IMG/VR virus record: IMGVR_UViG_2526164632_000038
Reading direction: 5' to 3' (one strand)
DNA length: 40,504 nt
Source: a virus
Taxonomy: Duplodnaviria > Heunggongvirae > Uroviricota > Caudoviricetes
Position numbers and translations under genes: made by a program. This document shows positions 1-35,504 of the stretch, one piece after another; position 1 is the first letter of the stretch, and each line of letters begins with the position of its first letter. The notes under the pieces are model-generated. The model saw nothing but the letters and a program-made list of their open reading frames with translations, did no database searches and was not told where the DNA came from.

Positions 1-247
1 CGGATATAACGGTGTTTTCAGGACGTACGACTGGTTCCGTGGAAAATTGTCCGTAAAGGCAGGCATCAAGTTCCTGCTCCGACATGCCTGCGGGCAAAGG
101 CCACGAAAGGCCAGCTCTCCGAAAGCGCACGAACATATTACAAACTGTTGATTTTGGTACACCCAGGCGACGCCCGGCCACAACCCGGGGTAAATGTTCT
201 TCAAAGTGAAGACGTAAAGCTTCAGTGATCCAGGTCCGGTGTTTCAT
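1..247 (-). mobile_element. Partial IS21-family istA-like transposase N-terminus (runs off window start)
   Basis: Minus-strand ORF from ATG at 247..245 to the window edge: MKHRTWITEALRLHFEEHLPRVVAGRRLGVPKSTVCNMFVRFRRAGLSWPLPAGMSEQELDACLYG. HTH followed by an AGLSWPLP motif that I recall from IstA proteins; family assignment is from memory only. Confidence 0.4.
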
Positions 248-326
248 ACGATAGTGTCCATTAAAAATGATGGACATTATTTTTGTAGAGCCGGAGGAAA
301 CAGACCAGACGGTTTAAATGAGCCGG

Positions 327-506
327 TTACGCTTTATATGAGCCAGGAGCATCTAAACAGGAACATGCCGGGATACCGACACCCACAGCAAGATATTCAG
401 TTGATGTGGAAATATATTCCCGTGTCTCACCATCATAATTGTAAACGGTAATGTCTCCCGCCTTTGTGGTGATGAGTTCGCTATTTAATACAGCTTTATT
501 CATCAT
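327..506 (-). pseudogene. Truncated tail fibre assembly protein (N-terminal 59-aa stub)
   Basis: ATG overlaps the tail fibre stop (ATGA at 503..506). Translation [59 protein letters not shown] then stop; far shorter than typical Tfa proteins and directly abuts the IS21-like fragment. Confidence 0.45.
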
Positions 507-1366
507 GCGGCCCTTACGATATAATTAAAAGCGATGTTACGAGGACGAGTTTCTGTACCTACATTTTCACTAATTTCACCATAACGTTTAACACTACGAG
601 AGCTAATAGCTCGTAGTGAGGAAGGCACATTAAGACCGGGTTCGTCCGTTTTAACTATTCCCCCGTCACCGTATGTAGCCAGTATTCCTGGGTTTACTCC
701 TTCCCGTGCACTTCCTGCGGCGAGTCCGTCCCCTGTCCATAATTCCATATAGTGTGCATGGTCCAAAATTGTGTGTGGCTGCCAATTAAGCAAAGCGCGA
801 CCAGTATCAATCCCGCGACCGTCATCCCAGCCACGAATAAATTCACCGCGTAAATCAGGCAATTTATTGGTCGGGTAAGCCTTTGCCAGTTCCGGGTATT
901 CTTCAGCAGAAAAAGCCGCACCGTTGCATTTCAGCCAGCCTGTTGGCGGTGTGACTGAAGGCCACGGAACAGGCACACCAACAGGTAATGCAGAACCTTC
1001 TCCCAAACCAAGGTTTTCGAGAGCCGTTTGCACAGTGCCATCCGATTTGATATCGCCAAACGGATTCTTGCGGCTCAGGTATTCAACAGCAAACCCCGAT
1101 CCCAGCAATTCAACAAAACCGGGCAGATCACCATTATCAAGCACATCCCGTTGCGTTTTGTCACTTACAAACTGGGCCAGAGCTGCAGCAATAAAGCTGG
1201 CCTGTCGAATGGCTTTGTTCACCTGCGCACTGGATGCTTTCCCTGCTGTAAATCCGGATAAAAGCGCAGGCAACGCTTCCCATTCCTCCTGCGACATAAC
1301 ATTGGCATTTCGATCAGTTGCAAACGCTTTAAAGTCATTTTTCGCCATCAGAGTAATACTCCCCAT
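503..1366 (-). CDS. Phage tail fibre protein
   Basis: 287-aa ORF at the distal end of the tail/baseplate cluster, Gly/Pro-rich, tail-fibre-like C-terminus, followed by a coupled tfa-like ORF. Confidence 0.6.
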
Positions 1367-2028
1367 GCTCCTACATCAAAACCACTGATGAATTCGTTAT
1401 CCATATCAAAACCAAAAAATTTTGAGCCTTCCGATGGGGTTTCCACCGAAGGAGTTTCAATGCCCCCCGCCCATACCCCGGCGGCTTTTACTGTGAGATA
1501 CCCCTGTTTAATTGCCGCAATTAACTCACGCGATACATCTGAAATATCAGTATCAGGAAAGACCCAGACCGATATCGTCATGTCCTGGTTATCGACTATC
1601 TGCATTCGCAGCCCGGATCCTGCTGTTGCCGCGTCAAGAATTGCCGGAAGCGAATCATTCCGTCCGTCCCAGTTATTAATCGCAATCTTCGCTTTAAGGA
1701 TGACACGATAAGTTTCATCGCTGAGGTACATGTATCCGGAATCAGGATCGTATGGTCCCTGCCATACACCCTGATCATATCCAAGCCCGTCGGTATCCCA
1801 GCTGAAATAAACACCTGAGATAGGCTGGCTGACAACACGGCTACGTCCGATCCACAATCCCAGAATGTCAAGTTGCACACCAACCGCAGAGTCAATATCA
1901 AATGCAGTAATCAGCCCTCTGGTGGCCGCCGCAACATCAATAAGCGGCCGGGTCATCAGATCAACATGTGCAAGAAATTTAGGTTTGGTGGCGTGGTAGT
2001 TCGTGATTAGTTCGGTGTATTTGCTCAT
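1348..2028 (-). CDS. Baseplate/tail-fibre-associated phage protein (resembles DUF2612-type proteins)
   Basis: 226-aa ORF between the baseplate J-like gene and the tail fibre, overlapping both neighbours; family resemblance is from memory. Confidence 0.45.
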
Positions 2029-3188
2029 GACTCCACCGTTATAACGATATTTTCCGGGGTACAGGACGCAGATTCGTTGTATCTGATATCAATGTTTGAT
2101 GACGACAAAGCCCCCGGAGATTTCCCAATCGTCAGTTCCTGAATATCGTAATAGCGTGCATTCCCGCCACTCACCACGCCAAGATTCGCCGGTGAGTAAA
2201 TGCGACTTAAAAGGACCGAATCACCAATCATCAGACTATTGATATAGTCGGAAATAGCCTGCTGGATCTGCTGCCCTATCTGTGAGGTATAACCCGTAAA
2301 AACTTTTAATTTAATCCGGGCATAAACAGGCACATCACTGGAACGCGAGAATTTGATTACATGGGGATTGCCGTATTTATCCGGAACCGTAACGGATGTT
2401 GTACCGTGAGTGGCTGTCCCCTGGCCTTTATTCCCTCTGATAGCCTGAGCAATATCCATCACATCACCGCCATCCACAATTACAGCAACAGAGTGTGGCG
2501 GTAACCCGTTACCGTCCTCCGAACCAGTATCGTTTTCATAGAGTTTGTGGCGGGTTACACCGGTAACATTAGAAACAGCACCATCCAGTGCTTCAAATGG
2601 GGTTATTGATGGCAACGCAACACTTTGCGACTGGCGGATACGTAACTCCGCATCAGTTTCTGCCGGAGAGCCAACAGTAGCCGCAGCAGGATTAGTTACC
2701 GAAACCCAGCCACGGGTTGGCGTATTAATTTCAGTGATAGTTCCAGCCAGCGCCGCCACTGCACCACTGACGGAACATGTTGCGGTCGCCATCACTGTAC
2801 CATCCACGCCGACCACCACTGAAGCAGGCAAACGCCATATCACACTATTACTGTCTTTCACGCTGCCATTAATGATGGTTGTTCCGGCAGTTCCTGTAAG
2901 AAGCAAATCAACCGTAGAATTCGTCGCGCCTTTACGTGAAATACCATTTATTTTCACGTTACTGGTCAGTGCGGCCCCATAGCCGGTTGCCGGTGAAAAA
3001 CAGTTGTAGACAGTTATCGCAGTATTATTGGCATCATGAATCGCCAGCGCCATCAGAGCCACCATCTGGCCGTCTTTACTATCCGGTTCGAGGTAGGTAG
3101 ACTGGCCCCCTGAATCTCCAGACAACCAGTATCACTTAAATAAGTGATAGTCTTAATACTAGTTTTTAGACTAGTCATTGGAGAACAG

Positions 3189-3554
3189 ATGATTGATGTC
3201 TTAGGGCCGGAGAAACGCAGACGGCGTACCACACAGGAAAAGATCGCAATTGTTCAGCAGAGCTTTGAACCGGGGATGACGGTCTCTCTCGTTGCCCGGC
3301 AACATGGTGTAGCAGCCAGCCAGTTATTTCTCTGGCGTAAGCAATACCAGGAAGGAAGTCTTACCGCTGTCGCCGCCGGAGAACAGGTTGTTCCTGCCTC
3401 TGAACTTGTTGCCGCCATGAAGCAGATTAAAGAACTCCAGCGCCTGCTCGGCAAGAAAACGATGGAAAATGAACTCCTCAAAGAAGCCGTTGAATATGGA
3501 CGGGCAAAAAAGTGGATAGCGCACGCGCCCTTATTGCCCGGGGATGGGGAGTAA
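3189..3554 (+). CDS. insC: IS2 transposase OrfA
   Basis: [41 protein letters not shown]... HTH protein; A6G slippery heptamer at 3506..3512 for -1 frameshift into orfB. Confidence 0.85.
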
Positions 3555-4417
3555 GCTTAGTCAGCCGTTGTCTCCGGGTGTCGCGTGCGCAGTTGCACGT
3601 CATTCTCAGACGAACCGATGACTGGATGGATAGCCGCCGCAGTCGTCACACTGATGATACGGATGTGCTTCTCCGTATACACCATGTTATCGGAGAGCTG
3701 CCCACGTATGGTTATCGTCGGGTATGGGCGCTGCTTCGCAGACAGGCAGAACTTGATGGTATGCCTGCGATCAATGCCAAACGTGTTTACCGGATCATGC
3801 GCCAGAATGCGCTGTTGCTTGAGCGAAAACCTGCTGTACCGCCATCGAAACGGGCACATACAGGCAGAGTGGCCGTGAAAGAAAGCAATCAGCGATGGTG
3901 CTCTGACGGGTTCGAGTTCTGCTGTGATAACGGAGAGAGACTGCGTGTCACGTTCGCGCTGGACTGCTGTGATCGTGAGGCACTGCACTGGGCGGTGACT
4001 ACCGGCGGCTTCAACAGTGAAACAGTACAGGACGTCATGCTGGGAGCGGTGGAACGCCGCTTCGGCAACGATCTTCCGTCGTCTCCAGTGGAGTGGCTGA
4101 CGGATAATGGTTCATGCTACCGGGCTAATGAAACACGCCAGTTCGCCCGGATGTTGGGACTTGAACCGAAGAACACGGCGGTGCGGAGTCCGGAGAGTAA
4201 CGGAATAGCAGAGAGCTTCGTGAAAACGATAAAGCGTGACTACATCAGTATCATGCCCAAACCAGACGGGTTAACGGCAGCAAAGAACCTTGCAGAGGCG
4301 TTCGAGCATTATAACGAATGGCATCCGCATAGTGCGCTGGGTTATCGCTCGCCACGGGAATATCTGCGGCAGCGGGCTTGTAATGGGTTAAGTGATAACA
4401 GATGTCTGGAAATATAG
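3512..4417 (+). CDS. insD: IS2 transposase OrfB (DDE catalytic domain)
   Basis: 301-aa ORF overlapping orfA in the -1 frame; IS3-family integrase-like core. Confidence 0.85.
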
Positions 4418-4559
4418 GGGCAAATCCAGTAGGCATCACTGCCATAAATCTGCTGAAAATAGCTAATCAGGGTGCTGAGTATCGTCTGATAATCAGGCGC
4501 ACTGATCCCCTCCGCGGTTACCTTTGCAGATAAACCGAGAGAATCAAGGTTCAGAGCCA

Positions 4560-4913
4560 TTACGCCTCCGATTTAACAGTCGTTATTCCATAGAGAGTGT
4601 CGATTTCAGCGGAAAACATGACACGTCGGGTCGTGGTATCCACCGTCGTATTGAAAGAGAGGATTGATTTAACGCCCCGCGTTTCGAGGATGCGCTTACG
4701 GATCGCCAGGTTGTAGGTTTCCGGCTTCTGCTTACCGAGCACAGACTGGATCCACGGGGTCCCTTCGGTGGTGTCGAGAAACCATTGCCCATACCACAAT
4801 TCAAATCGCGTTTTTACCGCCTGCGCCACGGCCTCCGGTGAGTTAATCAGCCAGGTGTCATCACCGCTGCCAAAGGTGTAATCGCCATCGGCGTCTTCAC
4901 GTCTGTATCGCAT
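4560..4913 (-). CDS. Small baseplate protein (gpW/gp25-like position)
   Basis: 117-aa ORF between the V-like and J-like genes; stop/start overlaps with both neighbours. Confidence 0.45.
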   Translation of the reverse strand: MRYRREDADGDYTFGSGDDTWLINSPEAVAQAVKTRFELWYGQWFLDTTEGTPWIQSVLGKQKPETYNLAIRKRILETRGVKSILSFNTTVDTTTRRVMFSAEIDTLYGITTVKSEA

Positions 4914-5665
4914 CAGTTTACCCTATCGGTATTGCTTCCACCGCGCTGAACACCGCCATGAGTGTGCGTATCATCGATTGGCTTGCCGTTAGCCTTCACG
5001 CTCCCCAAAAACTCAACAGCACCAGTGATTTTTGAAGCCACACCAGAAACCACAGACCCCACCATGCCCCCCATCCAGGTTAACAGGCCATGAATGGTTA
5101 CTTTCTCAGAAAAATCAGCCAGAGGGGCAACCACATCAAGACCACCCGGAGCGACAATTTTAATTTTCCTGGTATCAGGATTAAGCTCAAAATAGGTGCT
5201 GCCGTCATCACTACGCAACTGTGTGGCACTGGTATTAATACCGCTAATCCTCCTTGCCTGCGACTGGGGACCGACAATACAAAACGCATCCGATAAATCA
5301 TGCATTCTGTCATCGACCGTCTCCTGTATCCCGCCACTCTGCCACCAGAAATCGATGCAGCGATCGGCAAAAATCACCAGGCATTCATCGCCGGCTTTTA
5401 CCGGGAAAGTTAACGTGCAGCCGCCGCCGCGCGGAAATACCACCGGCACATCCACCAGCAGCGGGTAATTTTTGGTTACGCGGTTGCCGTCGTTGTCGGT
5501 TTCAACCGAACGAATAGCAGGCTGCACAACCGCCGTCACCGCGTCAGGATCGAATGACTGAACGATGCCAGGCAAAGCGACGCGGATCTGGTTCTTTGTG
5601 GTTTCCCGCTCGGATTTGAATGTTTCGGCAAGGTCGCCGCTACGAGTCTGGTCTGATATGGCCAT
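4913..5665 (-). CDS. Baseplate assembly/spike protein (gpV-like)
   Basis: ATG at 5665 preceded by AGGAG (caggagtttatcaaATG); 250 aa; position in baseplate cluster. Confidence 0.45.
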   Translation of the reverse strand: MAISDQTRSGDLAETFKSERETTKNQIRVALPGIVQSFDPDAVTAVVQPAIRSVETDNDGNRVTKNYPLLVDVPVVFPRGGGCTLTFPVKAGDECLVIFADRCIDFWWQSGGIQETVDDRMHDLSDAFCIVGPQSQARRISGINTSATQLRSDDGSTYFELNPDTRKIKIVAPGGLDVVAPLADFSEKVTIHGLLTWMGGMVGSVVSGVASKITGAVEFLGSVKANGKPIDDTHTHGGVQRGGSNTDRVN

Positions 5666-5682
5666 TTGATAAACTCCTGAAA

Positions 5683-5706
5683 ACAAAAAACCCGCCAAGT
5701 GGCGGG
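5683..5706 (-). terminator. Rho-independent terminator closing the AT-rich cassette
   Basis: Minus strand reads CCCGCCACTTGGCGGG followed by TTTTTTGTT. Confidence 0.55.
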
Positions 5707-5900
5707 TCTACAGGAACAACTCTAAGTTTATTTTTCTGTTTAAAATTGTCCAACTCAGGTTCTTTAACGCTTTCTGTCATGTAATCCAATCCACCAAAAG
5801 GTACTTCAAGCATTATACTGCTTTCATAATCAGCCATGGATTGCTCTGCTTGCGTTGGCTTGCTTTGCTGTGAGTTGTCATTATTTGATGTTGTCATCAA

Positions 5901-6122
5901 CTATGCCTTATTTATCAAAAGAAAAGTAACCGATAATATGAAAAAACCGAAAGATAACGCAATTCCTTCAAAAAGATAACGAGCGTAAACTGCCTTTTCT
6001 TTATGAAGACTTTCGATCAATTCAACAGCTTTACCATACTGAAACATATGGTATCTAAGCGTTTTAATTTTATCACCGTAAAATAAAAAATCATGCTCTT
6101 CTTTTCGCTTATGAATAGGCAT
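5901..6122 (-). CDS. Small membrane protein (73 aa) in AT-rich cassette
   Basis: ATG at 6122 (MPIHKRKEEHDFLFYGDK...) directly after the upstream stop; C-terminal hydrophobic helix LFEGIALSFGFFILSVTFLLI; AT-rich. Confidence 0.35.
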   Translation of the reverse strand: MPIHKRKEEHDFLFYGDKIKTLRYHMFQYGKAVELIESLHKEKAVYARYLFEGIALSFGFFILSVTFLLINKA

Positions 6123-6136
6123 TTTTGGTATATCTT

Positions 6137-6454
6137 TCAGTCCCCAAGTACGCCATAGGAAAAAAAGCACATAACAATACAAACAAAGCACAGATATGCA
6201 CAAAGTATAGATAATGTTAAAAACCAATTACTCTTTAGCCCACTTTTGAAATCAACAGTCCCAAATACAGCCAGTAGAGCAGAGGTTTCTACAGCTAAAA
6301 TAGCAAGAAGGTAGTTAACTTTGTCCTCAAGACGACGATATGTTGATTTTGCTTCCTCATATCTATCTTTATAATATGACGAAATAAAATCAGCGCCTAT
6401 AGTCTCAATTGCCTTTTGTTCTTCTGTTGTATCTATTGACGAACGCTTGCTCAT
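6137..6454 (-). CDS. Membrane protein (105 aa) in AT-rich cassette
   Basis: MSKRSSIDTTEEQKAIE... with two hydrophobic segments (LLAILAVETSALLAVFGTV; WFLTLSILCAYLCFVCIVMCFF); AT-rich. Confidence 0.45.
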   Translation of the reverse strand: MSKRSSIDTTEEQKAIETIGADFISSYYKDRYEEAKSTYRRLEDKVNYLLAILAVETSALLAVFGTVDFKSGLKSNWFLTLSILCAYLCFVCIVMCFFSYGVLGD

Positions 6455-6461
6455 TTCTCAA

Positions 6462-6809
6462 TCAACCAACAACTTTCTTACACGGGAAAGAGCCAATAAT
6501 TTTCGGAGCATCCATGCTGTTCTGCAACAACTGGACGTTCAGGAAACGCGTTTTAGTGCCAGGTCGATGGATATACTCGAACCCATAATTGTTGCCATCT
6601 TTGGCAGGCATCAGGTCCATTTTGATCTGCATGCCTGTACCGTCTTTACCCAACATTTTTACTTTTTGGGACGTTACTGTTTCGCCATTGATTTTAAATA
6701 ATGAATCAGGGATCGCATCCATACGAAAGTTGCCGCATTGCATCGTTATGGTGTTTGCACTTACACCAACAGACACTAATGCCAGCAATGAAAATATCCA
6801 TCGTTTCAT
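6462..6809 (-). CDS. Small secreted protein with N-terminal signal peptide (115 aa)
   Basis: ATG at 6809 with GAGAGGA upstream; MKRWIFSLLALVSVGVSA-NT signal-like N-terminus, no lipobox Cys. Confidence 0.5.
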   Translation of the reverse strand: MKRWIFSLLALVSVGVSANTITMQCGNFRMDAIPDSLFKINGETVTSQKVKMLGKDGTGMQIKMDLMPAKDGNNYGFEYIHRPGTKTRFLNVQLLQNSMDAPKIIGSFPCKKVVG

Positions 6810-6811
6810 TT

Positions 6812-7876
6812 CTATAATCCTCTCTGAAAAGCAGTGCTGGATGGCATATCCTGCGCACCGCGCGCTTCGCACATCATATCCATGTACCACGCCTGGCCCC
6901 TTGTATCGCCAGTGTACATAATCCCGCGCACAATATAAACGCCATCCGTTGCGATGCTGGCAGGCTGCGATGTGGTGCCGCTTAGCGTAATATTTCCGTC
7001 CGTGTTCTGGTCGGTGATCTGCCCACCAGCCATAGCGATATCGTTGTTCGACAACGCGGTGCGATATACGGAAGCCTGATCCAGTTGAATGAGCCCATTA
7101 ACCCGGATGTTCGGATTAATAAGCGCGCGAACGTTTACGCCGTTGCCGATGGTCTGCTGCGGCATGCCAATAAGCCCGGTAGCGCTGTTGAGCACAATCG
7201 CTTCGTGAACATATTCATTATTCGCCACCATCTGGCGCTGACCGTCTACGAATTGCCATGTTGCGCCACATTGCCCGGCTACGTTATCCATTAGATGCCG
7301 CGTCATGCCAAAGAGCACCCGCCCCCGGGGGAATACAGTAGCAGGCATTTCAGGCGTCAGGCCTTCGGTCGCACCTTTGGCTTCGAAGTCTTTCATCAGC
7401 GCACGGTTCACATCAGCGACCGTGTAACCGGCAGCCAGCGTCTGTGAGGTTATACTGGTGGCAAAAGCCAGATCAGTATCTGCTGCCTGAATCAGGACGT
7501 AGGAATCAACCGGACTGTCTTTTCCTGTAACCGAGTAGCGAATTTCACCGCTGAAAATCAGTCCGTAGTTGCGGCCATCACTCTGGCCCACGTCCGCCGC
7601 ATCAACCTCCCGCACGATCCCGACGTCGCTTGCCGACACCTCCGGCGCGATACCGTCGTAACCCGCAATCAGACGCACTTTCGAAAACTCCCGCCCGGTG
7701 ATTCGGTTCACAGTATCTGCCGAGAGGTTATAAATTTTGATAGTCCCTACCCGGGACGCGCTGCTGATGTTGAACCAGTCGATCGTAAAGGTCACTTTAA
7801 AATCACTTAGCTCAATTCCCTGACCGTTCCCGTCCACAAGCTGCAGCTCGAAATGTCTCATCCAGTTCTGTGACAT
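6812..7876 (-). CDS. Tail/baseplate hub-region protein
   Basis: 354-aa ORF downstream of the tape measure cluster; operon position. Confidence 0.45.
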   Translation of the reverse strand: MSQNWMRHFELQLVDGNGQGIELSDFKVTFTIDWFNISSASRVGTIKIYNLSADTVNRITGREFSKVRLIAGYDGIAPEVSASDVGIVREVDAADVGQSDGRNYGLIFSGEIRYSVTGKDSPVDSYVLIQAADTDLAFATSITSQTLAAGYTVADVNRALMKDFEAKGATEGLTPEMPATVFPRGRVLFGMTRHLMDNVAGQCGATWQFVDGQRQMVANNEYVHEAIVLNSATGLIGMPQQTIGNGVNVRALINPNIRVNGLIQLDQASVYRTALSNNDIAMAGGQITDQNTDGNITLSGTTSQPASIATDGVYIVRGIMYTGDTRGQAWYMDMMCEARGAQDMPSSTAFQRGL

Positions 7877-20026: not shown

Positions 20027-21648
20027 CAGGCCTGTCTCCCTAGCAGCTCCCAGATGTTCAGGGCTGAATTCATTGGGGCATAGTTGATCATCACCGAGTC
20101 GGCAAGGTTTGGCGATCGGGTTCCATCAGGCTGTTTATCAATAACGATTTTTCCCACACCATTAATGGAATAGGTCGGCTGCGAAAGCTCGATGATGAGT
20201 TTATCTTTGAGTGCCATGCTACTGCTGATTGAGATGATTTCGTCCGGGTTGTAAGCCATACCTTCAACCACGGCGCGCCAGGTATTCTGAAAAAGTTTAC
20301 GTAACCGCCACCAGCTCTGGGCTTTGGCGTTAGCGAAGAAGTCCTTGTTCAGACGTGCGGCTTGCCCGTTGTCCCCGCGAACAGCTTCATCATCCGGATC
20401 AAATACCGCGCCACTACCTCGAAACGGTGTGGCAAGTATTGACGGTCGACGCGCAGCGTTACGCAGTTCGTTGATAGCGCGTGCATCGCCGCGAACGCCA
20501 GCGCCCAGCCCGTCCTCGTCAAAGCGAAACTCTTCGAGGTTGTCCTGTTCGCAAAAGCCGAAAACCTTCTCGACGGACTGATAAATGTCGCTGCCCACAC
20601 CGGACCATTCCCGCACATTTTCCAGGAGGAAGCCATGACGGGTGGAAAAGGCATTTTTGTCCCTGCCTTCGTCGGCGACATCCATCGCGCCAAGTCGTTT
20701 GCCTGTTGGCTGGATACCCAGTTTGATATGCGCATCAACGGCAGCCTGTACCCATTCGGATGGAATCAGAACGCCTTCCGCTGATGCGCTGTAGTTCAGA
20801 TCAAGTTCCTGTGCCACCACCACCGGATTATCGATTTTCTCGCATTCCCTGCGATACCACTCTTCATCCTTGCGAGGATCATCCCGCCAGTGGAATGTGA
20901 ATACCGGTATCTTCCCGCCATGACGCTTCTGAGCGAACGGGTTAGCCATGCCGTTAACTGAACTCAGGTCGATACGGCAACGCGTCGTTTGTGACAACGC
21001 CGCATCAATCAGCAGAGGACGCTGAAGGAATGCAGCCTCATCAACCAGATAAAGCGTGGTACGGTCACCACGACCAATATTATCGCCAGCCTCGCCTTTG
21101 ATAACGGCACCAGTTTCAGGAAACTCAACACGCATATATGGCGCGTGCTTCTTCTCGCTCCACGAACCGCGAAACTCTACAGGTAGCGTTTCCACGAACT
21201 TGCGTGCCTTCCAGAACAATGCTTTCGGGTCACCAGTGCTGTCGACGTATTCCTCTTTACGGGAGCCGAAACCGATAACCATTTCTTTGTTGAAGAGACA
21301 AAGCGAGCAGGCCAGTCCGATCGCGGTCCAACTGAGCCCCATTTCACGGGATTTTTCGGTAATACCATTCTCCCGATTGCCCCAGCGTTCCATAATCCAG
21401 TGGATCCACTCCTCCTGCTTAGGGAAGAGTAAAAACGGAATGGTCACCGGCAGGCCATAATCAATATTACGCGGGTCCGTTGTCATGCCCCAGTCGATGA
21501 TGAACTGAGCCGGATTGGTTCGGTAAAACTGCTTCAATACGGGCAATATTTCAGGATTCTGGCGAATGCGCTGTAGGCGTTCCATCCGCCATTCAAAAAC
21601 CATCTGGTAATCAGGATGTTTAAAATCGAAGGGGAATGGTAACGGCAT
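20026..21648 (-). CDS. Terminase large subunit
   Basis: 540-aa ORF; Walker B-like [10 protein letters not shown]; follows the small subunit and precedes the portal. Confidence 0.7.
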
Positions 21649-23740: not shown

Positions 23741-23965
23741 TGTTAAATTTGTTAAAAAAGGAAGTTATTTAACATAATGTACGTTATAGGAACCACACGA
23801 TCCCCGCTCGCAATAGATTTGCGATGAAAGGCCTATTTAATCAACTTAAGTGGTCCAGAATGACGAAATTCGAGTGAATAAAAGGTGCATAAAAAAGGGC
23901 AAAAACTGCATAGCGTTTTTTCGCAGCGAAAGCCCTGTTTTATTAGCTTTTCCCCAGAATGGGGC

Positions 23966-23992
23966 AATAAAAAAGGCCCCCTTGCGGAAGCC
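23966..23992 (-). terminator. Second terminator-like hairpin in the late leader (GNRA loop)
   Basis: Minus strand reads GGCTTCC-GCAA-GGGGGCC (two G-U wobbles) followed by TTTTTTATT. Confidence 0.4.
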
Positions 23993-24431
23993 TCTTCGTG
24001 ATGAACTGTTTTCAACAGATATCAGGCTAATCGGCTTTTTGGAATTCCACAACTATTTTTTATCTTACCTTGATGCCTGATGCCGTCAGATGTTTACGAC
24101 AGTCCTGAATACCTTCGTTATAACCCGCATCGTAGAAGCTATCCGGCTTTGCCTTCAGCGCAGGAAGCGTAACGCTGGTAGCTCTTCGTTCGGCCAGAAC
24201 ACCTGCCTGAAAGAGTGTCCACATCAACTGAACTGCTGAATCACAGTAAGTAACATCTTCACTGTACAATTCTCGTTCAATCCGATGCCAAGTTGAGCCT
24301 TCATTGATGCGCCAATATTACCTTTGACCTGCAACGACAGGTCTGGGTACCTCTGTTCCATGAAGCTTTCAAATCTGTTGCGAACGCTGATCAGAGCCAT
24401 CTGGTTCCCTTACGTGATTGATTGCTGGATA

Positions 24432-24854
24432 TTATGCCGCCGAGCAGCTCCTACGCAAAGTCCTGATAGCCTGAGGCTTTGACTGAACCGACTGATCCAT
24501 TTCGAGCACCACATCCAGCATGGCTAAGCAACCGTCAATAAATCCCTCTGCCGCCTGAAGCCTCTTCAGAACGTGGGTGTGAGATACGCCGAGCTTCTCA
24601 CCCATCGCCCGCACGGGCATGGCCTGGACGTAATGCCACTCAAGGAGCGTGCACAGATACGGATCTTTTTTCTTCAGGCAGCTCATAGCGGAGTTGATGA
24701 TAAGACCGTCATTGTCACTGCATTTCAGCCTTCCAGACTGCGTCGCGGGTAGCAGATTCTTAAACCCGGCTGCAACAGGAGGAAAGTAGACGCTACCACC
24801 TTCACTCGCTGCCCAGCCACCCCAGCGCTCTAAAACCTGTTGAATATTACGCAT
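24432..24854 (-). CDS. Late-gene antiterminator, Q-like
   Basis: 140-aa ORF between the primase-helicase gene and the lysis cassette, upstream of the terminator-containing leader; family resemblance from memory. Confidence 0.55.
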   Translation of the reverse strand: MRNIQQVLERWGGWAASEGGSVYFPPVAAGFKNLLPATQSGRLKCSDNDGLIINSAMSCLKKKDPYLCTLLEWHYVQAMPVRAMGEKLGVSHTHVLKRLQAAEGFIDGCLAMLDVVLEMDQSVQSKPQAIRTLRRSCSAA

Positions 24855-24983
24855 AGCTCTGACCTCTACGTTTTGCTACGAAAAAATTTTCTGAGAACCA
24901 CGTCTGTTTATCCGTGGGTGTGGATAACGCAGTTCCGATTCGCTTATTACACGCTGTTATGTGCAAAAAATTCCTTGTTCGGC

Positions 24984-25155
24984 CTGTACCAATCTGTACC
25001 CACCTGTACCAGCTCTTTTCAAACCTTTTCCCCAAGCGACTTATATATATATATGGGGTTCTTAGTAATTAGGTTGGTACAGATGGTACAGTTGGTACTG
25101 ACCTTTAAATTCAATTAGTTAAAATGTACCAACCTCTATTTTGAGGCTGGTACAG
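24984..25155. repeat. Iteron-like repeat array flanking an AT-rich tract (candidate origin or regulatory array)
   Basis: CTGTACC at 24984, 24994 and 25004 (10-bp phasing); (TA)n tract at 25041..25054; inverse GGTACAG/GGTACTG at 25076, 25085, 25094; further copies at 25125..25130 and 25149..25155. Confidence 0.5.
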
Positions 25156-27328
25156 GTTGGGACACCGCCTCAAAAATTCGAGTCATTTTCCCCCCAATTC
25201 GCCTTTGGGCACGCTTATACCCGCAATTTTGCAAAACATTACTAATTCGCATTTCTTCGCGTTTTCCGATGCGGTCAGGATTTAGCCCAATCGCATCACG
25301 CAAAACATCACTTGCGCGTAAAAATTCGCAATTTCGCGGAAGTTCATTAGTCATCAGGTCTGGCGTGTCGAGCCATTTCTCTACCGTTTCAAGCCAAGCA
25401 TCCTTGATGGTGTACTGTTCATGGACACTCGCTGCCAGTTGTTCAGCCTCACGGAACTGGATACCCCCCAGACGCTGAAACACCTCACGAGCCTCAGCCC
25501 AAAGTAAAAGGAGATCTCTTTTTATCGCTTTCACGTCGACTTTCGACACTTCCACGGGGAGCCAGCGACGGTTACCAGTCTTGTCCGCAAGGAATTCGTC
25601 CTCATTGGTGGTACCAACGAACACCAGGCGACGAGGAAACTGGGTGGCGAACTCCCGGTATTTCGGGATCCAGTTTTCGTGAGTACGCGTCACAAACGCT
25701 TTGATTGACTCCAGCTCTTTGGTATTAAGTCCGCGCAGTTCACCAATCTCTGCCACCAGCCGACCACGCATTTTTCGAGCGAGATCATCGTCTTTTTCGG
25801 CAAAAGAGATTTCAGTAAAAAACGCAGGATCAGGGCTCAGTGCCTCCACTCCGGAAGACTTACCGCAGCCCTGCGGACCAACGAGGATCGGCACCATATC
25901 CGCTTTGATGCCTGGCTCCAGTACTCGCCCCGCCAACGCGGTCCACATGTACATAGACACCGCACGGGTATAAGGCGTGTCGGCTGTACCGAAGTGCGTA
26001 TGGTAGAAACATTCGATGCGCGGCACGCCATCCCACTCCAGCCCGTTCAGCCAGGTAATCGCTGAATCGAATGGTTGTTCATCGGCTGCAAGTAACACCA
26101 CATCGCGAATAAGTTCACGACCAACAGGTTTAAATCCCCGCTTTTCCATCGTGATGCGCAGGCGCGCATAATCCGCATCGGTGAATGCTCGCCATTGTCC
26201 GGATCCTGCAGAGGCAAACATGATTTCGTCGCGGAACTGGTCAAAGCGAATATCGATGTCCACAAAATCAGGGCGTACTACTGCTTTGGCTGCGTTGCTG
26301 ATGGTTGCCTCGATACGCCCCCATTTATCACGCTCGAAAGCAGGCAGCGGTAAAGGTTCCGCCACTTCGGTGCTGGTCAGATCTTCGAAATCGTCGTTGC
26401 GGATCCCGATGGCATTAAGGAAATCTCCGTCATCACGATGCGCACAACTGGCATGCAGGCATTTAAAATGCCCCTGCTCAAAGCCCGCGGTTCCCGCAGG
26501 AAAATAAGCTGTGCTTGTTGGATCGCCCCCGCTACTGTGGCCGTCTTCAAACGGACAGCGGATATATCGTTCACCATTTGCGCCATCCAGCAGCGTCCAG
26601 CCATTGGCATCAAGATATTCAGCTGTATCATCCGTCGCGCCGGGCGTGAATGCTGATCGGTCGCGCATCTTCGTGTTGCCCGCTTCGGTGGTTACCGACA
26701 CAGGGAGTTGTTCAGCCAGGCGCTGCCACAGCGTTTCAAGCTGCTCACCAGTAATAGCCGGAGGTTCATCCGGCAAACCACCGTCCCATTCAATACGCGC
26801 GCCGCTGCTGTGCGTACCACAGGCAACGAACTGCTGCCCGTTCGCCAGCAACTCGATAATGCCCATATCCCCCGCCAGGCGATGGATACGCTTACAGAAA
26901 TCACCATCAACGGCCAGCAGATACAGACACTTATTACTGTTTGCTCGCCAGCGTCGCGGCGGCAACTCCCCCAGAAGTTGCACAAGCGTTTTGCGAATAT
27001 CTGCCTGAATGTCTTCATCTTCGCTATCGCAGTCCAGCGCCAGCCAGCCATGGCCTGTACGCACGCAGATGCCATAATCCGGTTCATTCGACCAGCGGGC
27101 AAAATCATGCTCAGTAACAACATACCCGGTCCATTGAGCAATACCGGTGACCTGGCGGTCCCGGTTATAGCGACTTGGCGTCTTACCCAGCGCTTTCAGT
27201 TTACTATCAGGGGATATGGTCGCACCGGGGTTACATACAACTGGGAGAAGATGATCAGTTCTCCCCAATACCAGGTCGAAATGAAACCACTCATCAGGCG
27301 TAGCTCCCCATGGTTTGCTATCGGACAT
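25136..27328 (-). CDS. Primase-helicase (primase-polymerase-like N-terminus with P-loop NTPase C-terminus)
   Basis: 730-aa ORF coupled to cro; Cys/His cluster (CPFEDGH..HFKCLHASCAH); Walker A GPQGCGKS; Walker B-like LVFVGTTNE. Confidence 0.7.
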   Translation of the reverse strand: MSDSKPWGATPDEWFHFDLVLGRTDHLLPVVCNPGATISPDSKLKALGKTPSRYNRDRQVTGIAQWTGYVVTEHDFARWSNEPDYGICVRTGHGWLALDCDSEDEDIQADIRKTLVQLLGELPPRRWRANSNKCLYLLAVDGDFCKRIHRLAGDMGIIELLANGQQFVACGTHSSGARIEWDGGLPDEPPAITGEQLETLWQRLAEQLPVSVTTEAGNTKMRDRSAFTPGATDDTAEYLDANGWTLLDGANGERYIRCPFEDGHSSGGDPTSTAYFPAGTAGFEQGHFKCLHASCAHRDDGDFLNAIGIRNDDFEDLTSTEVAEPLPLPAFERDKWGRIEATISNAAKAVVRPDFVDIDIRFDQFRDEIMFASAGSGQWRAFTDADYARLRITMEKRGFKPVGRELIRDVVLLAADEQPFDSAITWLNGLEWDGVPRIECFYHTHFGTADTPYTRAVSMYMWTALAGRVLEPGIKADMVPILVGPQGCGKSSGVEALSPDPAFFTEISFAEKDDDLARKMRGRLVAEIGELRGLNTKELESIKAFVTRTHENWIPKYREFATQFPRRLVFVGTTNEDEFLADKTGNRRWLPVEVSKVDVKAIKRDLLLLWAEAREVFQRLGGIQFREAEQLAASVHEQYTIKDAWLETVEKWLDTPDLMTNELPRNCEFLRASDVLRDAIGLNPDRIGKREEMRISNVLQNCGYKRAQRRIGGKMTRIFEAVSQPVPASK

Positions 27329-27331
27329 GGG

Positions 27332-27544
27332 TTAAGCCTTTTTATCGTTTTGTGAGCCATACAACAGCCAATTAGGGTCGCAATCCAATGCTATAGACAT
27401 TTCAAGAAGATAACGTGGCCGAGCAATAACACCACTTTCAATTCTGTTTATTGCCTGCTGGCTCACTCCTGTGAGCTCAGCCAACGTAACTTGCGTCATT
27501 TTGAGTTCTTTACGTCGTTCTTTTACTCGGGTCGCTAAGGTCAT
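27332..27544 (-). CDS. Cro-like HTH repressor
   Basis: ATG at 27544 with GAGGTGA upstream; 70 aa; HTH QVTLAELTGVSQQAINRIESG; divergent from the cI-like gene. Confidence 0.7.
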   Translation of the reverse strand: MTLATRVKERRKELKMTQVTLAELTGVSQQAINRIESGVIARPRYLLEMSIALDCDPNWLLYGSQNDKKA

Positions 27545-27583
27545 TGCTTTCACCTCATACAATTTTAGTGGTATTTAGCAACA

Positions 27584-27618
27584 ACAAATGAGGTTTGTCA
27601 AATACAACAAAAATTGTT
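27584..27618. promoter_or_regulatory. Operator-like dyads in the cro/cI divergent promoter region
   Basis: ACAAA-N5-TTTGT at 27584..27598, TTGT-N5-ACAA at 27595..27607, AACAA-N3-TTGTT at 27606..27618, within the 120-bp gap between the two starts. Confidence 0.4.
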
Positions 27619-27664
27619 TTTAATGTGGGTATACACATTAATACAACCCAGAAGGACTAATCCC

Positions 27665-28288
27665 ATGTCTCTCGCAGCCCGTTTTAAAGCACGTCGTTTG
27701 GAATTAGGAATGACTCAAGTGGAAGTAGCGAATTCTGCAGGGGTTAGCCAACAATCCATAGAATCCATCGAAAGTGGACGAACCAGAAAGCCACGCAATC
27801 TTCTGGATCTGGCTAAGGCCTTGAAATGTAGCCCAGACTGGCTACTGAACGGTAAAAATATTATGCCTCTCGCGGAGATAAGTACCAGACGCATACCTAT
27901 ATTAAGTTACGTTCAGGCAGGAGAGCTTACAGAAGCAAGAGACATAACAGATCTGACAGGGGAATTTGAATATATTTTGGCAGACTCTGACATTCCAGAA
28001 ACATGCTTCGCATTACGTATTGATGGCGACAGCATGCAACCAGAGTTTAAAGAAGGAGACATTGTTATCATCGATCCTGATCTATGTCCTGCACCAGGGG
28101 AGTTTGTTGTCGCCAAAAACGACGGTCACGAAGCTACATTTAAAAAATACCGTCCATTAGGAATCGGCATCGACGACTTTGAATTAATCCCCCTAAATCC
28201 TGATTACCCTATTTTTCGTAGTGCAGATATGAACTTACAGATCATAGGTGTAATGATCGAACACCGTATTTACCGCCGTAAACGTTAG
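27665..28288 (+). CDS. CI-like repressor (HTH plus S24 LexA-type autopeptidase domain)
   Basis: ATG at 27665 with AGAAGGA upstream; HTH QVEVANSAGVSQQSIESIESG; C-terminal GDSMQP serine motif. Confidence 0.8.
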   Translation: MSLAARFKARRLELGMTQVEVANSAGVSQQSIESIESGRTRKPRNLLDLAKALKCSPDWLLNGKNIMPLAEISTRRIPILSYVQAGELTEARDITDLTGEFEYILADSDIPETCFALRIDGDSMQPEFKEGDIVIIDPDLCPAPGEFVVAKNDGHEATFKKYRPLGIGIDDFELIPLNPDYPIFRSADMNLQIIGVMIEHRIYRRKR

Positions 28289-28307
28289 TATTCCCACCGT
28301 AAATATC

Positions 28308-28327
28308 GGGAGGCGTAACAGCCTCCC
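28308..28327 (+). terminator. Hairpin after cI (possible terminator, weak U-tract)
   Basis: GGGAGGC-GTAACA-GCCTCCC perfect 7-bp stem, followed by TTACCCCATTTG. Confidence 0.3.
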
Positions 28328-28335
28328 TTACCCCA

Positions 28336-28440
28336 TTTGTAAAGTCTTACAAATTAAATTCACTTAAATATCAATAAAGTAGTATTCACACCCCACAAAA
28401 TACCACGTTTGCGGTTTACACAATACAACTCAAATTGTAT
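28336..28440. promoter_or_regulatory. Candidate early-left operator/promoter region
   Basis: TTTGTA-N6-TACAAA at 28336..28353 and ATACAA-N6-TTGTAT at 28423..28440; half-sites resemble those between cro and cI. Confidence 0.35.
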
Positions 28441-28610
28441 CTTTAGCCACAAGTCGAACGGCGCGACTCTAAACCATGCGTCGGGACCGTGGCGGGACAG
28501 GATGTCGGCAATACGGGTCAGTAAGTTCCCTTTGGGGTGCGGCGAAGCACTGCCTACTGATACAAGTCGAAGCCGCCGAACCACCAAAGTGAACTGAATG
28601 AGGAAACGGC

Positions 28611-28805
28611 GTGAAAACATATAAACCGCTCAAAGGTGAATGCCCTGCTTGCCAAACACAGCTTCAGACACCAAAGCCAAAACGATACCAAATCAACGAA
28701 TGTTATGAGCACTGCCCTGGATGTGGTGCTTTCCTGCATACCATTGCAACGCACTGGCGTGTCCGCTTCAACCTTGTGGTACCACGTACGCACAATACCA
28801 ACTGA
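28611..28805 (+). CDS. Small zinc-ribbon-like protein
   Basis: GTG start with AGGAAA upstream; two Cys pairs (CPACQ ... CPGCG); first ORF of the plus-strand early operon. Confidence 0.35.
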   Translation: MKTYKPLKGECPACQTQLQTPKPKRYQINECYEHCPGCGAFLHTIATHWRVRFNLVVPRTHNTN

Positions 28806-28921
28806 ATCATCCATGTAATTGCTGTGTGTAGTCTTTGCCCGCCGCAAGTGACGGGCTTTTTTATGTCTGAAAGCGCACTCGCAACAGCGCGCTCCCCGAT
28901 ATGAAAAAAGGAATACAACCG

Positions 28922-29071
28922 ATGAAACCTGAACACCTCTATCGACTGACGGGGCGCGATGTTCTCCGTTATCGCCGTAAAAACTTCGATTTGATGACCG
29001 GTCTGGCCGTTGCCACTGCGCTCGGTCTGATCATCACTTTCATTCTCCTTGTTGCGAGGACCACAGTATGA
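28922..29071 (+). CDS. Small single-pass membrane protein (49 aa)
   Basis: AAGGA upstream of ATG at 28922; [49 protein letters not shown]; stop overlaps next ATG (ATGA). Below the ORF-track length cutoff. Confidence 0.35.
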   Translation: MKPEHLYRLTGRDVLRYRRKNFDLMTGLAVATALGLIITFILLVARTTV

Positions 29072-29970
29072 GTTTAGAAACCAGTCTCGAACTTAATAAT
29101 CAACTTCTGGCACAACATAATGCGCTGCTTGAACGTCTTATCCGCACAATGGCATCAGGTATTGTTATGCATCCTGACACGATTTCACGAGTGCAGGAAT
29201 GTCGGGATACAGCAACTGAAACTGAAAATATGTCAGCGGCAATGACACTGGATGATCTGGAGTTCAGCGACGTTATCGCACTGGCTGGTTTCTACCCGGT
29301 AGCCACCCCTATCACAGAAGACATGCTGCAACGTGCTGTTGCCTACCGTGATGCTGAAGGCGATAAACGAGTAGTTCAGATTGATCCTCTCGACAGCGCA
29401 TTGCAGGGCGTCAAACGAGCCAGGGCACTGCATAAACCCGCTCTTCTGGACCTGTCCCGTAACATTCTTAAGTTCTGGGACGACCTGCCAACCATCGGCG
29501 AGCGACGTGCTTTTGCCGAGCAACTACTTGATGCACCTGCAGATGGGCGTGATGAAGTTAAGCCGAAAAAGGCCAGTAACAAAGATGGAGAACGCACGGG
29601 GCCGTTTTACGTCAAAAATGTATCCGGCACAGCAGCCAGTGAACTCCACACCTTACGCAAGTTGAACGAGATGCTTAAAAAAGGCCATATCGAGATCAAC
29701 CGTGTTGAGTACCTTCAGCTGCAGGAAGAATTTGCACGCAGAGACGCAGCAAATTCCAGCCAGAATAATGACGCCAAAGATGACCATACAATTGATTTCG
29801 CGGCACTACGCAAACAAGCTGAAGGGTTGATCCTCCAGTTAGCAAAAGGGGGTTACCGGGCAGAAGCTATTGCAATTCTGGAAAAACAGGGAGCCAGGAA
29901 ACTTGGTGAAGTAACGGATGAAAATCTCGCTGAAGTAATCACCCTGGCTGAAAAAGCACTGGAGGGTTAA
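29068..29970 (+). CDS. Hypothetical early protein
   Basis: 300-aa ORF coupled to flanking genes; no family recognised. Confidence 0.5.
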
Positions 29971-29972
29971 TC

Positions 29973-31274
29973 ATGCCAGACGTTCATGCACAACTTTCTC
30001 CATCATCAGCGCATCGATGGATGCGCTGCCCAGGAAGTCTGGCGCTGGAGGCCACACAACCGGATAAAGAAACAACTTTTGCAATCGAGGGCACTGCAGC
30101 GCACGCGCTTGCTGAAAAAGTTCTACGAAACAGGCAAAGCCACCCGGAACACTACGCCGGATGCAATGTTTCTATGTTTCTCGGCTCATACCCCCTTCGC
30201 GAAAATCCTGATGATACATCTGGCCCACAGGTGGATGATGAAATGGTCGAAGCCGTTGGCCGGTATGTTGATACGGTCTGGACTCTTGCACAGAATAATG
30301 AACTATTGGTTGAACAACGTGTTGATTTCTCACATATAACGGGGGTGGAAGAATCTTTCGGAACTGCCGACGGCATAATCATCGCTGGTAACGAATTACA
30401 AATCCACGACCTGAAATATGGCAAAGGCGTCCGCATTGATGCAGAACAAAATGAGCAACTACAACTGTATGCTCTGGGTGCGCTCGAACAATTCAGCATG
30501 CTGTATGACTTTGAGACTGTAAGATTATTTATTCACCAGCCAAGGCTCAACCACGTTTCAGAATGGTCGTTAACCGTACAGGAACTTCAGTCTTTCGGTG
30601 AACGGGCACAGGAGGCCGCAACCAGTGCGATCCTTGTTCTCAATATTGCTGAATGCGAAGGCATTGAGACACTACCGCTGGAAAACTTCATACCTGGAGA
30701 AAAACAGTGCCGCTTCTGTAAAGCAAAAGCTATTTGCACTGCCCAGAAAATGCAGCATTTACAAACAGCGGCCAGCGATTTTGAAGATCTGACAAAGCCT
30801 GTCAGCGAAATAATCACCAATGCCAGCGCACGTGTACCTCTGTTAACCATTGAGCAGCTTGCGGAGATCTATAGCCAGGCCGACTTTATTGAATCCTGGC
30901 TAAAGGCAGTACGGGACCGGGTTCACAATGAACTCAATGCCGGACATCCGGTACCGGGGTTTAAACTGGTAACAGGAAAACAAGGTAACCGGGCCTGGAG
31001 TGATGAAGAGGCAGCTCGCGCACTTCTGAAGGACCAGTTCAGGTACAAAACTGAAGAAGTATTCGACTTTAAACTTATTAGTCCCACAAAAGCCGAAAAA
31101 CTTATCAAAAAGGCCAGTCCACGCCGTTGGTCAAAAGTCGAGGCACTGATAACACGAGCTGATGGTAAACCAACCGTCATTCCCGAGTCAGACCCACGCC
31201 CCGCACTCAATATCAACCCTGTAAATGATTTCGACGACGTATCCGACGATACGCTAACCGCAGACCTCATCTGA
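29973..31274 (+). CDS. PD-(D/E)xK nuclease with Cys cluster (Cas4-like; resembles DUF2800-type phage proteins)
   Basis: N-terminal RWMRCPGS Cys plus C-terminal [10 protein letters not shown] cluster; nuclease-like motif ...IHDLKYGKG. Confidence 0.6.
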
Positions 31275-31289
31275 TTTAAGGAAATACCC

Positions 31290-31838: not shown

Positions 31839-31853
31839 CCCTACTTCATAGAC

Positions 31854-31872
31854 GCCCGGTTAAACACCGGGC
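31854..31872. terminator. Bidirectional hairpin between convergent genes
   Basis: GCCCGGT-TAAAC-ACCGGGC perfect stem between the SSB-like stop and the reverse-oriented membrane gene stop; no clear U-tract. Confidence 0.3.
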
Positions 31873-31890
31873 TACTGATTAGGCGTATAA

Positions 31891-32520: not shown

Positions 32521-32566
32521 AATTAATCTTTTAATCAGTTAATAGAATAAAAACCAAGGTAAACAC

Positions 32567-34630: not shown

Positions 34631-34694
34631 TATAACTCACCTTATCGAGCTATGGCGACATGCTGAATTCGAGTAAATTAAAGGAACAATACTT

Positions 34695-35456: not shown

Positions 35457-35479
35457 TTACCCCTTATTGTTGATTACAA

Positions 35480-35504
35480 CCCTGCATCGCGGGGTTTTTT
35501 ATTT
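35480..35504 (+). terminator. Rho-independent terminator after the TIR-like gene
   Basis: CCCTGC-ATC-GCGGGG hairpin followed by TTTTTTATTT. Confidence 0.5.

Follow-up and report, generated by a model that had tools for sequence, protein, structure and literature searches.

IS2 interrupts a baseplate J-family gene of a SEN34-like Escherichia coli prophage, probably as a late step in prophage decay

A baseplate J/gp47-family gene in the window (the whole stretch of DNA analysed, 40,504 nucleotides) is divided by a copy of IS2, and the locus raises the question of whether this insertion disabled the prophage or reached a prophage that was already impaired. The sequence is contig AIHC01000071.1 of draft assembly GCA_000250255.2. 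Coordinates of the features discussed are collected in Table 1.

IS2, a common element in E. coli, belongs to the IS3 family and transposes by a copy-out/paste-in route via a minicircle. The segment at 3098–4428 (+) is a complete IS2 of 1331 bp, with orfA reading on the plus strand. Full-length alignment with E. coli K-12 IS2A shows 1324 matching bases of 1331 (99.47%), with 7 substitutions and no indels, and the element is 100% identical to copies in FDAARGOS_1059, O111:H2 strain 12A, and O111:H21 strain 15A. RefSeq annotates the matching copies as "IS3-like element IS2 family transposase", and FDAARGOS_1059 carries identical IS2 copies on both chromosome and plasmid. Its terminal sequences are TAGACTGGCCCCCTGAATCTCC... 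on the left and ...GGAAATATAGGGGCAAATCCA on the right; a gapped alignment of these termini reveals imperfect inverted repeats of 42 bp and 41 bp, differing by one gap, and these are the lengths reported for IRL and IRR of IS2 (PMC3299598, from which the defining features of IS2 were taken), placing the element within IS2 by its ends. The two-frame arrangement of orfA and orfB, with an A6G −1 slip site, also fits IS2, in which the A6G window takes part in −1 frameshifting (PMC3299598); for the present copy, frameshifting itself is predicted. The orfB product matches the Pfam profiles rve (E 1.5e-18), rve_3 (E 1.7e-18), and HTH_21, and its assignment as DDE-type is made by profile. Judged from its intact ends and reading frames, the copy is apparently competent for transposition, with the qualification that the interior of a multi-copy IS in a draft contig may be a consensus of copies, so that "intact" is less secure here.

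A copy of GTAGG abuts each end of IS2. At two uninterrupted loci, L001 and L006, the alignments of the left and right flanks overlap on one GTAGG copy (L001 21069–21073), indicating that the repeat is a true target-site duplication and not a chance occurrence. Joining 2025–3097 to 4434–4560 on the minus strand yields 1200 nt comprising 399 codons and a stop, with no internal stop, and places the break between Tyr44 and Leu45. At least 14 complete E. coli genomes contain a gene annotated "baseplate J/gp47 family protein" whose DNA is 100.0% identical to the rebuilt gene over the 1200 nt; the change in J is limited to the IS2 insertion, and the rest of the gene is unaltered. The initial annotation had described an intact IS2 with readable ends and a 5-bp GTAGG repeat, removal of which would join a 44-codon stub to a 355-codon remainder, and that description is borne out in each part: the ends can be read, the alignment with the K-12 reference is without gaps, the empty sites are single-copy, and the rebuilt gene is one open frame free of stops and frameshifts.

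The rebuilt J protein matches Pfam Baseplate_J (PF04865; E 7e-15, 55.4 bits against a cut-off of 21.1, profile positions 4–252 of 255) and phrog_6, "baseplate wedge subunit" (E 2.7e-75). The Baseplate_J domain (residues 85–342) is located wholly within the 355-codon remainder, with IS2 positioned upstream of the entire domain. Full-length, collinear J homologues are present in phages vB_EcoM-606R2 (98%) and SEN34 (83%), and, in this cross-phage comparison by J only, full-length identity is 70% for Klebsiella phage Mulock, 64% for Hafnia phage yong1, and 49% for Burkholderia phage Magia. The gene order (spike, sheath initiator, J, DUF2612, tail fibre) is that of a contractile-tail baseplate cluster. 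J overlaps both of its neighbours: its start codon, ATG at 4560–4558, shares bases with the upstream TAA stop, and its TGA stop shares bases with the ATG of the following gene (ATGA). A gene identical to the one at 4560–4913 has PF10934 Sheath_initiator among its listed domains. P2 gpJ, Mu gp47, and T4 gp6 are needed for baseplate assembly, and knowledge of these proteins suggests a baseplate-wedge role for the window J.

Table 1. Features of the IS2 insertion, the split J gene, and the adjoining tail genes, in window coordinates
Feature	Coordinates	Strand	Basis
End of 2699-bp IS66-family (ISCro1-like) element; source contig starts inside it	1..330		Alignment to L006, RefSeq annotation, IS ends
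Tail-fibre-assembly gene, N-terminal fragment cut by IS66-family element	327..506	-	PF28596 Caudo_TAP_N
Tail-fibre gene (Collar domain), downstream of insertion	503..1366	-	Pfam Collar, E 1e-14; phrog_3100, E 2.5e-91
DUF2612 / "baseplate wedge 1" gene, 226 aa, intact, downstream of insertion	1348..2028	-	Pfam DUF2612, E 4e-47; RefSeq names
Baseplate J/gp47-family gene, codons 45-399 and stop	2025..3092	-	Translation; own start codon absent
Left target-site duplication copy, GTAGG	3093..3097		Read directly
IRL, 42-bp left imperfect inverted repeat, begins TA	3098..3139	+	Gapped alignment of ends
orfA (insC), 121 aa, open	3189..3554	+	A74V only vs K-12; Pfam HTH_Tnp_1, E 1.6e-19
A6G programmed -1 frameshift window (predicted), AAAAAAG	3506..3512	+	IS position 409, inside orfA/orfB overlap
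orfB (insD), 301 aa, open	3512..4417	+	G41S only vs K-12; integrase-core catalytic domain
IRR, 41-bp right imperfect inverted repeat, ends CA	4388..4428	+	Gapped alignment of ends
Right target-site duplication copy, GTAGG	4429..4433		Read directly
Baseplate J/gp47-family gene, codons 1-44 (stub)	4429..4560	-	Translation
gp25/W-like baseplate wedge or sheath-initiator gene, 117 aa, intact, upstream of J	4560..4913	-	phrog_120, E 4e-37

With a complete IS2 inserted after codon 44, the baseplate J/gp47-family wedge gene would be expected to be a null allele. The frame of the stub continues into IS2 as a 72-aa hybrid ORF (4342–4560), and the predicted product is the 44-residue stub followed by 28 IS-encoded residues. 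The DUF2612 wedge and tail-fibre genes, located downstream in the same operon, probably lose expression as well, because the insert places ~1.3 kb of untranslated sequence between them and the upstream genes, and ribosomes can no longer arrive at the ATGA overlap with J. A simple scan found no intrinsic-terminator-like site within IS2, so any polarity would need Rho acting on the untranslated RNA. A role of IS2 as a mobile promoter for the downstream tail genes was considered and ruled out: no outward promoter-like site was found from IS2 toward those genes, and the promoter that IS2 itself carries points inward (PMC3299598). With J null and downstream expression lost, we infer that the prophage would be unable to build a baseplate, and hence a tail, from its own genes.

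We compared the window with the near-isogenic genome FDAARGOS_1059, which was used in place of strain 12A; the latter was ruled out as an empty-site reference, its J gene being in a different prophage that adjoins pphA. FDAARGOS_1059 has an empty site and is 99.97% identical over the rest of the window, from which it differs by 5 substitutions and 6 single-base indels over ~39 kb, plus IS2. A 300-nt probe of the left IS2 junction found the junction in none of the 5,426 complete E. coli genomes (best coverage ≤56%), and both halves of J are still 100% identical to intact alleles. The empty site in so close a sister and the lack of the junction among complete genomes argue that the insertion is recent and strain-specific, and the unchanged J halves likewise argue that it is recent, in agreement with the age first proposed for it.

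The prophage carries a second IS lesion, in a gene for tail-fibre assembly. Window positions 1–3097 align to L006 39712–36616, and that alignment, the RefSeq annotation of L006, and the IS ends together identify an IS66-family element with an 8-bp target duplication, TATAAAGC, one copy of which is located at 331–338; this element interrupts the tail-fibre-assembly gene some 58 codons from its start. The same IS66-family insertion is present in the sister FDAARGOS_1059, which is without IS2, indicating that the IS66-family lesion is the older of the two. In P2 and Mu, a cognate assembly chaperone is required for functional fibres. Tail production was probably impaired already before IS2 arrived.

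We conclude, with a probability of roughly 0.9, that IS2 inserted between J codons 44 and 45 of a SEN34-like prophage as a late decay step, following the IS66-family insertion. The IS2 insertion was probably neutral and was not the first disabling event. The initial annotation had IS2 as the likely cause of lost virion assembly; the splitting of J and the restoration of the gene by removal of IS2 stand, and the precedence given to IS2 does not, the lesion in the tail-fibre-assembly gene having come first. A phage that stayed viable until IS2 struck an otherwise functional prophage would account for the lack of decay in the J halves since insertion and for the other late genes, which are collinear with, and 99.97% identical to, those of the O103:H2 12009 and FDAARGOS_1059 prophages; however, that history is unlikely given the older IS66-family lesion and the fibre chaperone requirement set out above. 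In addition, the annotations of both the sister genome and 12009 mark the invertase beside the fibre segment as frameshifted, making a switch to an alternative fibre/chaperone set unlikely.

We assign the prophage to the SEN34-like temperate myoviruses; yfhH and yfhL flank it, and its host is an E. coli strain near FDAARGOS_1059. Its tail and baseplate gene order matches those of the vB_EcoM-606R2 record and the 12009 prophage, the annotations of these relatives having been read. vB_EcoM-606R2 was set aside as proof of a viable phage: its GenBank record contains the flanking host genes yfhH and tadA, and a literature search found no paper on it. The head, packaging, lysis, replication, integrase, and accessory genes appear free of structural lesions, other differences from relatives being single bases. 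The TIR-domain gene at 34695–35456, a candidate defence gene, is intact and shows no difference from the sister genome, consistent with the earlier view that cargo has been retained.

The earlier description of the prophage as defective rests on sequence, and applies to what the prophage could make by itself. FDAARGOS_1059 contains a second prophage of the same type, adjoining pphA, that encodes the same J protein (WP_001197085.1) and has tfaE intact; in principle such a SEN34-like prophage could provide both J and the fibre chaperone in trans, or could repair J by recombination, leaving the window prophage still mobilisable. In that second prophage, the sheath-initiator gene has an internal stop and the DUF2612 gene is frameshifted; both genes are intact in the window. 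For O157 Sakai, defective prophages have been proposed to complement one another (PMC2669165). However, the second prophage is known here from the sister FDAARGOS_1059 alone, and we regard continued mobilisation as improbable, to about the same degree as late viability. More doubtful still is the fuller scenario, in which the source strain would contain a pair of SEN34-like prophages whose tail-gene defects are reciprocal, each dead alone and both together encoding one complete baseplate, such that they could release infectious or transducing particles or restore an intact phage by recombining via their identical J alleles.

The quality of the draft assembly bears on whether the insertion is natural. 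The contig passes straight through a multi-copy repeat, the junction is otherwise found only in the source contig itself, and the window's four private single-base differences from complete relatives (indels at 5731, 6160, 36800, and 36802) each shorten an A or T run; FDAARGOS_1059 has two private indels of its own, in the opposite direction. The four indels are possibly sequencing noise, and, as A/T-run shortenings in a draft assembly, they were not adopted as further decay. An origin of the insertion as an assembly artefact or a laboratory-culture event is nevertheless very unlikely: a mis-join would not yield exact IS2 termini and a perfect 5-bp duplication that is single-copy at the empty site, and an event in laboratory culture, possible in itself, would still be a real transposition event. 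Least likely of all is expression of the 355-codon part as a wedge protein with full or partial function, for which a 366-codon ORF running from a TTG at 3125 within IRL into the J remainder, a gene-caller start at Met54 (346 aa), and the presence of the entire Pfam domain in the remainder could be cited, but which is opposed by the finding of no promoter-like site facing out of IRL, by the lack of a convincing ribosome-binding site ahead of either start on reading the sequence by eye, and by the alignment of every full-length homologue from residue 1, indicating that the J N-terminus is conserved. The 72-aa and 366-aa hybrid ORFs are absent from public assemblies, and the 346-aa Met54 version is present in the source contig only.

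Late insertion of IS2 into an already damaged prophage is a known element acting in a known way, as part of ordinary prophage decay, and its value is mainly practical. Annotation should treat the hybrid ORFs and both J fragments as a single IS-interrupted pseudogene and record two IS lesions in the tail genes of the prophage. With a near-isogenic empty site at hand, the locus is a clean, datable case of IS-driven prophage decay, and the IS2 insertion could mark the strain within its lineage. If sibling prophages of this type do complement one another, they would provide a non-lambdoid example for the "defective prophage pool" idea, which is itself already established.

Comparison with K-12 MG1655 IS2A, which splits yaiX, reveals the same size, ends, orfA/orfB arrangement with A6G, 5-bp duplication, and splitting of a host gene; the duplication of IS2A is ATTAC. 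The window IS2 differs from IS2A in its new insertion site, in one residue per protein, and in its 7 substitutions, one of which is located within IRL (position 32, G for A). The window J shares the Pfam family Baseplate_J with P2 gpJ, Mu gp47, and T4 gp6 and likewise adjoins a gp25/W-like gene and a further wedge gene, but is only distant from them in sequence, and its partner is a DUF2612 protein in place of P2 gpI, which is not recognisable here.

SEN34, Mulock, yong1, and Magia all have an uninterrupted J, unlike the window prophage. SEN34 can be induced with mitomycin, gives plaques, and is a myovirus by morphology (PMC5261728), indicating that an intact module of this type makes working tails; its particles are infectious (PMC5261728). 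The SEN34 replication region is described as lambda-like, whereas that of the window prophage comprises genes for a VapE primase, a DNA polymerase, DUF2800 and DUF2815 proteins, and a helicase. IS-disrupted prophages of pathogenic E. coli, such as the "defective prophage pool" of O157 Sakai, offer a close parallel in manner of decay, with IS insertions and frameshifts in morphogenesis genes and retention of accessory genes, and with several related prophages per genome among which missing virion proteins could be shared (PMC2669165). Unlike the lambdoid Stx phages, the window prophage is of the SEN34-like myovirus type, and its replication module includes a family-A DNA polymerase. Release and transfer are known for apparently defective prophages (PMC2669165).

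Analysis of the interrupted baseplate gene reveals that the 1331-bp element within it is IS2, intact as far as sequence can show, with all the testable hallmarks of IS2. The element starts TAGACTGGCCCCCTGAATCTCCAGACAACC and finishes GTCTGGAAATATAGGGGCAAATCCA, and alignment of its two ends shows imperfect inverted repeats, one of 42 bp and the other of 41 bp, equal to the published lengths of IRL and IRR (PMC3299598). It aligns gaplessly and end to end with K-12 IS2A, with 7 substitutions, and the orfA and orfB proteins each differ from those of K-12 IS2A by one residue. IS2 matches are present in 4,854 of 5,426 complete E. coli genomes, and in several complete genomes there are copies with 100% identity to the window copy. 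The source is a draft assembly, so the sequence of the element's interior may merge several copies into one consensus. At window position 3129 (IS2 position 32, inside the 42-bp IRL), the element carries G in place of the A of K-12 IS2A; the identical copies in other genomes also have G, indicating a natural variant.

Features of the interrupted region and of other genes discussed in the text
Feature	Window position	Strand	Details
IS66-family element, end	1-330		not phage DNA
IS66-family target duplication, window copy	331-338		8 bp
Tail-fibre-assembly gene fragment	327-506		
Tail fibre	503-1366	-	
DUF2612 wedge protein	1348-2028	-	
J (split)	4560-2025	-	
J codons 45-399 + stop	3092-2025	-	without own start codon
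GTAGG	3093-3097		
IS2	3098-4428		1331 bp
orfA	3189-3554	+	121 aa; Pfam HTH_Tnp_1
AAAAAAG slip site	3506-3512		within orfA/orfB overlap
orfB	3512-4417	+	301 aa; Pfam HTH_21, rve, rve_3
GTAGG	4429-4433		
J codons 1-44	4560-4429	-	
Hybrid ORF (J stub + IS2)	4342-4560		72 aa
gp25/W-like sheath initiator	4560-4913	-	
Membrane-puncturing spike	4913-5698	-	
AT-rich cassette	5699-6811		37% G+C
Baseplate hub	6812-7876	-	
TIR-domain protein	34695-35456	+	253 aa, intact
Hypothetical protein	36185-36982	-	265 aa, broken in window

GTAGG lies directly outside both IS2 ends. At two empty loci (L001, an uninterrupted locus, at 21069-21073; and L006, the matching prophage locus of the near-isogenic complete genome E. 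coli FDAARGOS_1059), the alignments from the two sides share precisely these 5 bases on one GTAGG copy, so the repeat is not due to chance; junctions and duplication are hard to explain except as a real insertion. Removal of IS2 and one GTAGG copy joins the two J segments into 1200 nt with no internal stop. At least 14 complete E. coli genomes, including ETEC H10407 and O103:H2 12009, contain genes annotated "baseplate J/gp47 family protein" that match the rebuilt J at 100.0% identity from end to end, and its start and stop are exactly those that RefSeq gives for these intact genes. The initial annotation, which had described an intact IS2 with readable ends, a GTAGG duplication, and a 44 + 355-codon frame restored by excision, is thus correct in all its numbers.

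The J protein fits the Pfam Baseplate_J profile (55.4 bits, residues 85-342; cut-off 21.1 bits) and matches phrog_6 "baseplate wedge subunit" (E 2.7e-75), and the genomic surroundings of its gene are as expected. Full-length homologues occur in E. coli vB_EcoM-606R2 (98% identity), Salmonella SEN34 (83%), Klebsiella Mulock (70%), Hafnia yong1 (64%), and Burkholderia Magia (49%). SEN34 can be induced by mitomycin and is a plaque-forming phage with myovirus morphology (PMC5261728); therefore, the intact module builds working tails.

The window corresponds to positions 3-40506 of contig AIHC01000071.1 (draft assembly GCA_000250255.2). FDAARGOS_1059 matches it over its full length at 99.97%, with 5 substitutions plus 6 indels of one base each in ~39 kb, and lacks IS2 at the site; its chromosome and plasmid carry IS2 copies identical to the window copy, so that a donor was at hand. 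A left-junction probe detected the insertion in none of the complete E. coli genomes searched, and the source contig was the sole match to the hybrid ORFs among public assemblies. Both J halves remain identical to intact alleles. The empty near-isogenic site, the absence of other junctions, and the undecayed J halves show that the insertion is recent, as had been proposed, and it is limited to one strain as far as the data go.

The J::IS2 allele is almost certainly null. The breakpoint lies upstream of the entire Baseplate_J domain, and the stub frame continues for 28 codons into IS2. In phages P2, Mu, and T4, loss of the wedge protein (gpJ, gp47, and gp6, respectively) blocks baseplate, and hence tail, assembly; by analogy, loss of J would do the same here. 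The minus-strand neighbours of J form a contractile-tail baseplate cluster, in which the start of J overlaps the sheath-initiator stop (TAATG) and the stop of J overlaps the DUF2612 start (ATGA). The ~1.3 kb untranslated insert would likely lower transcription of the downstream DUF2612 and tail-fibre genes; a simple scan of IS2 gave no intrinsic-terminator-like site, so this loss would depend on Rho. The ATGA overlap coupling J to the next gene would also now be out of reach of ribosomes.

The window is a prophage between yfhH and yfhL, with genes for lysis, terminase, portal, head, sheath, and tube, and an early region encoding Q antiterminator, VapE primase, repressor, DUF2800, DUF2815, DNA polymerase, helicase, and integrase. 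The prophage is mosaic: the late region (331-24556) is 99.97-100% identical to the 12009 prophage, and the early region (23843-40504) is 92-98.6% identical, with three stretches (about 27343-28807, 34619-35884, and 36144-37070) having no match there; in 12009 the polymerase and helicase genes flank a different set of genes, with one for a DNA cytosine methyltransferase among them. The TIR-domain gene, whose protein matches PDC-S35 (E 6.8e-109), listed by PADLOC as a candidate single-gene defence system, is probably the retained "cargo" of the initial annotation. The AT-rich cassette between the hub and spike genes (tail genes, ~52% G+C) has a promoter-like site, a strong terminator-like hairpin (5709-5688, minus strand), and ORFs of 56 aa, 184 aa (a membrane protein, phrog_18554, with a weak PADLOC PycTM match, E 2.6e-4), and 115 aa.

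Homopolymer indels were not counted as decay, since the source is a draft assembly. Relative to complete genomes of relatives, one base is missing from the window at each of 5731, 6160, 36800, and 36802; every one of these sites is in an A or T run, and two of the deletions break accessory genes. The 184-aa membrane-protein gene is frameshifted at 6160 (A7 versus A8 in two complete genomes), which may be a homopolymer miscall, and the 265-aa protein (WP_001127515.1 in FDAARGOS_1059) is broken by two A5-versus-A6 differences, at 36800 and 36802. The latter has hydrophobic stretches resembling several membrane-spanning segments, and received neither a Pfam nor a PADLOC assignment. FDAARGOS_1059 is itself one base short at each of the sites corresponding to window 7322 and 17169, in genes that are open in the window. 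A 113-aa hypothetical gene, located between those for the Q antiterminator and holin, is split by a one-base deletion at 24284 relative to 12009; this deletion is common to FDAARGOS_1059 and lies outside any homopolymer, and so is probably real.

The proposal that a recent IS2 insertion probably inactivated virion assembly and left the prophage likely defective is right on the event and on its timing but overstates the role of IS2. The tail-fibre-assembly gene is interrupted after about codon 58 by a 2699-bp IS66-family (ISCro1-like) element, with ends GTAACCGG... and ...CGCTTAC and target duplication TATAAAGC, and this repeat is evidently where the source contig breaks off. FDAARGOS_1059, which lacks IS2, has this insertion at the same place, indicating that it is the older of the two. 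Both FDAARGOS_1059 and 12009 have a frameshift annotated in the invertase gene next to the fibre segment. Functional fibres were probably already beyond the prophage's ability, and IS2 struck second, without being the decisive lesion.

FDAARGOS_1059 also has a second prophage of the same SEN34-like type adjoining pphA (L009, 3521056-3528248), with an identical J protein, an intact fibre-assembly gene, an internal stop in the sheath-initiator gene, and a frameshifted DUF2612 gene. O111:H2 strain 12A (L008) likewise has a SEN34-like prophage adjoining pphA, with J identical to the rebuilt J and a sheath-initiator internal stop. If the source strain also has the pphA prophage, the two have reciprocal defects and could share virion proteins; "defective" needs qualifying, because the second prophage could supply J and fibre-assembly protein. 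Such sharing has been suggested among defective prophages in O157 Sakai, and IS insertions in prophage morphogenesis genes are common in pathogenic E. coli (PMC2669165). The event described here is nothing new in kind; the insertion site alone is new.
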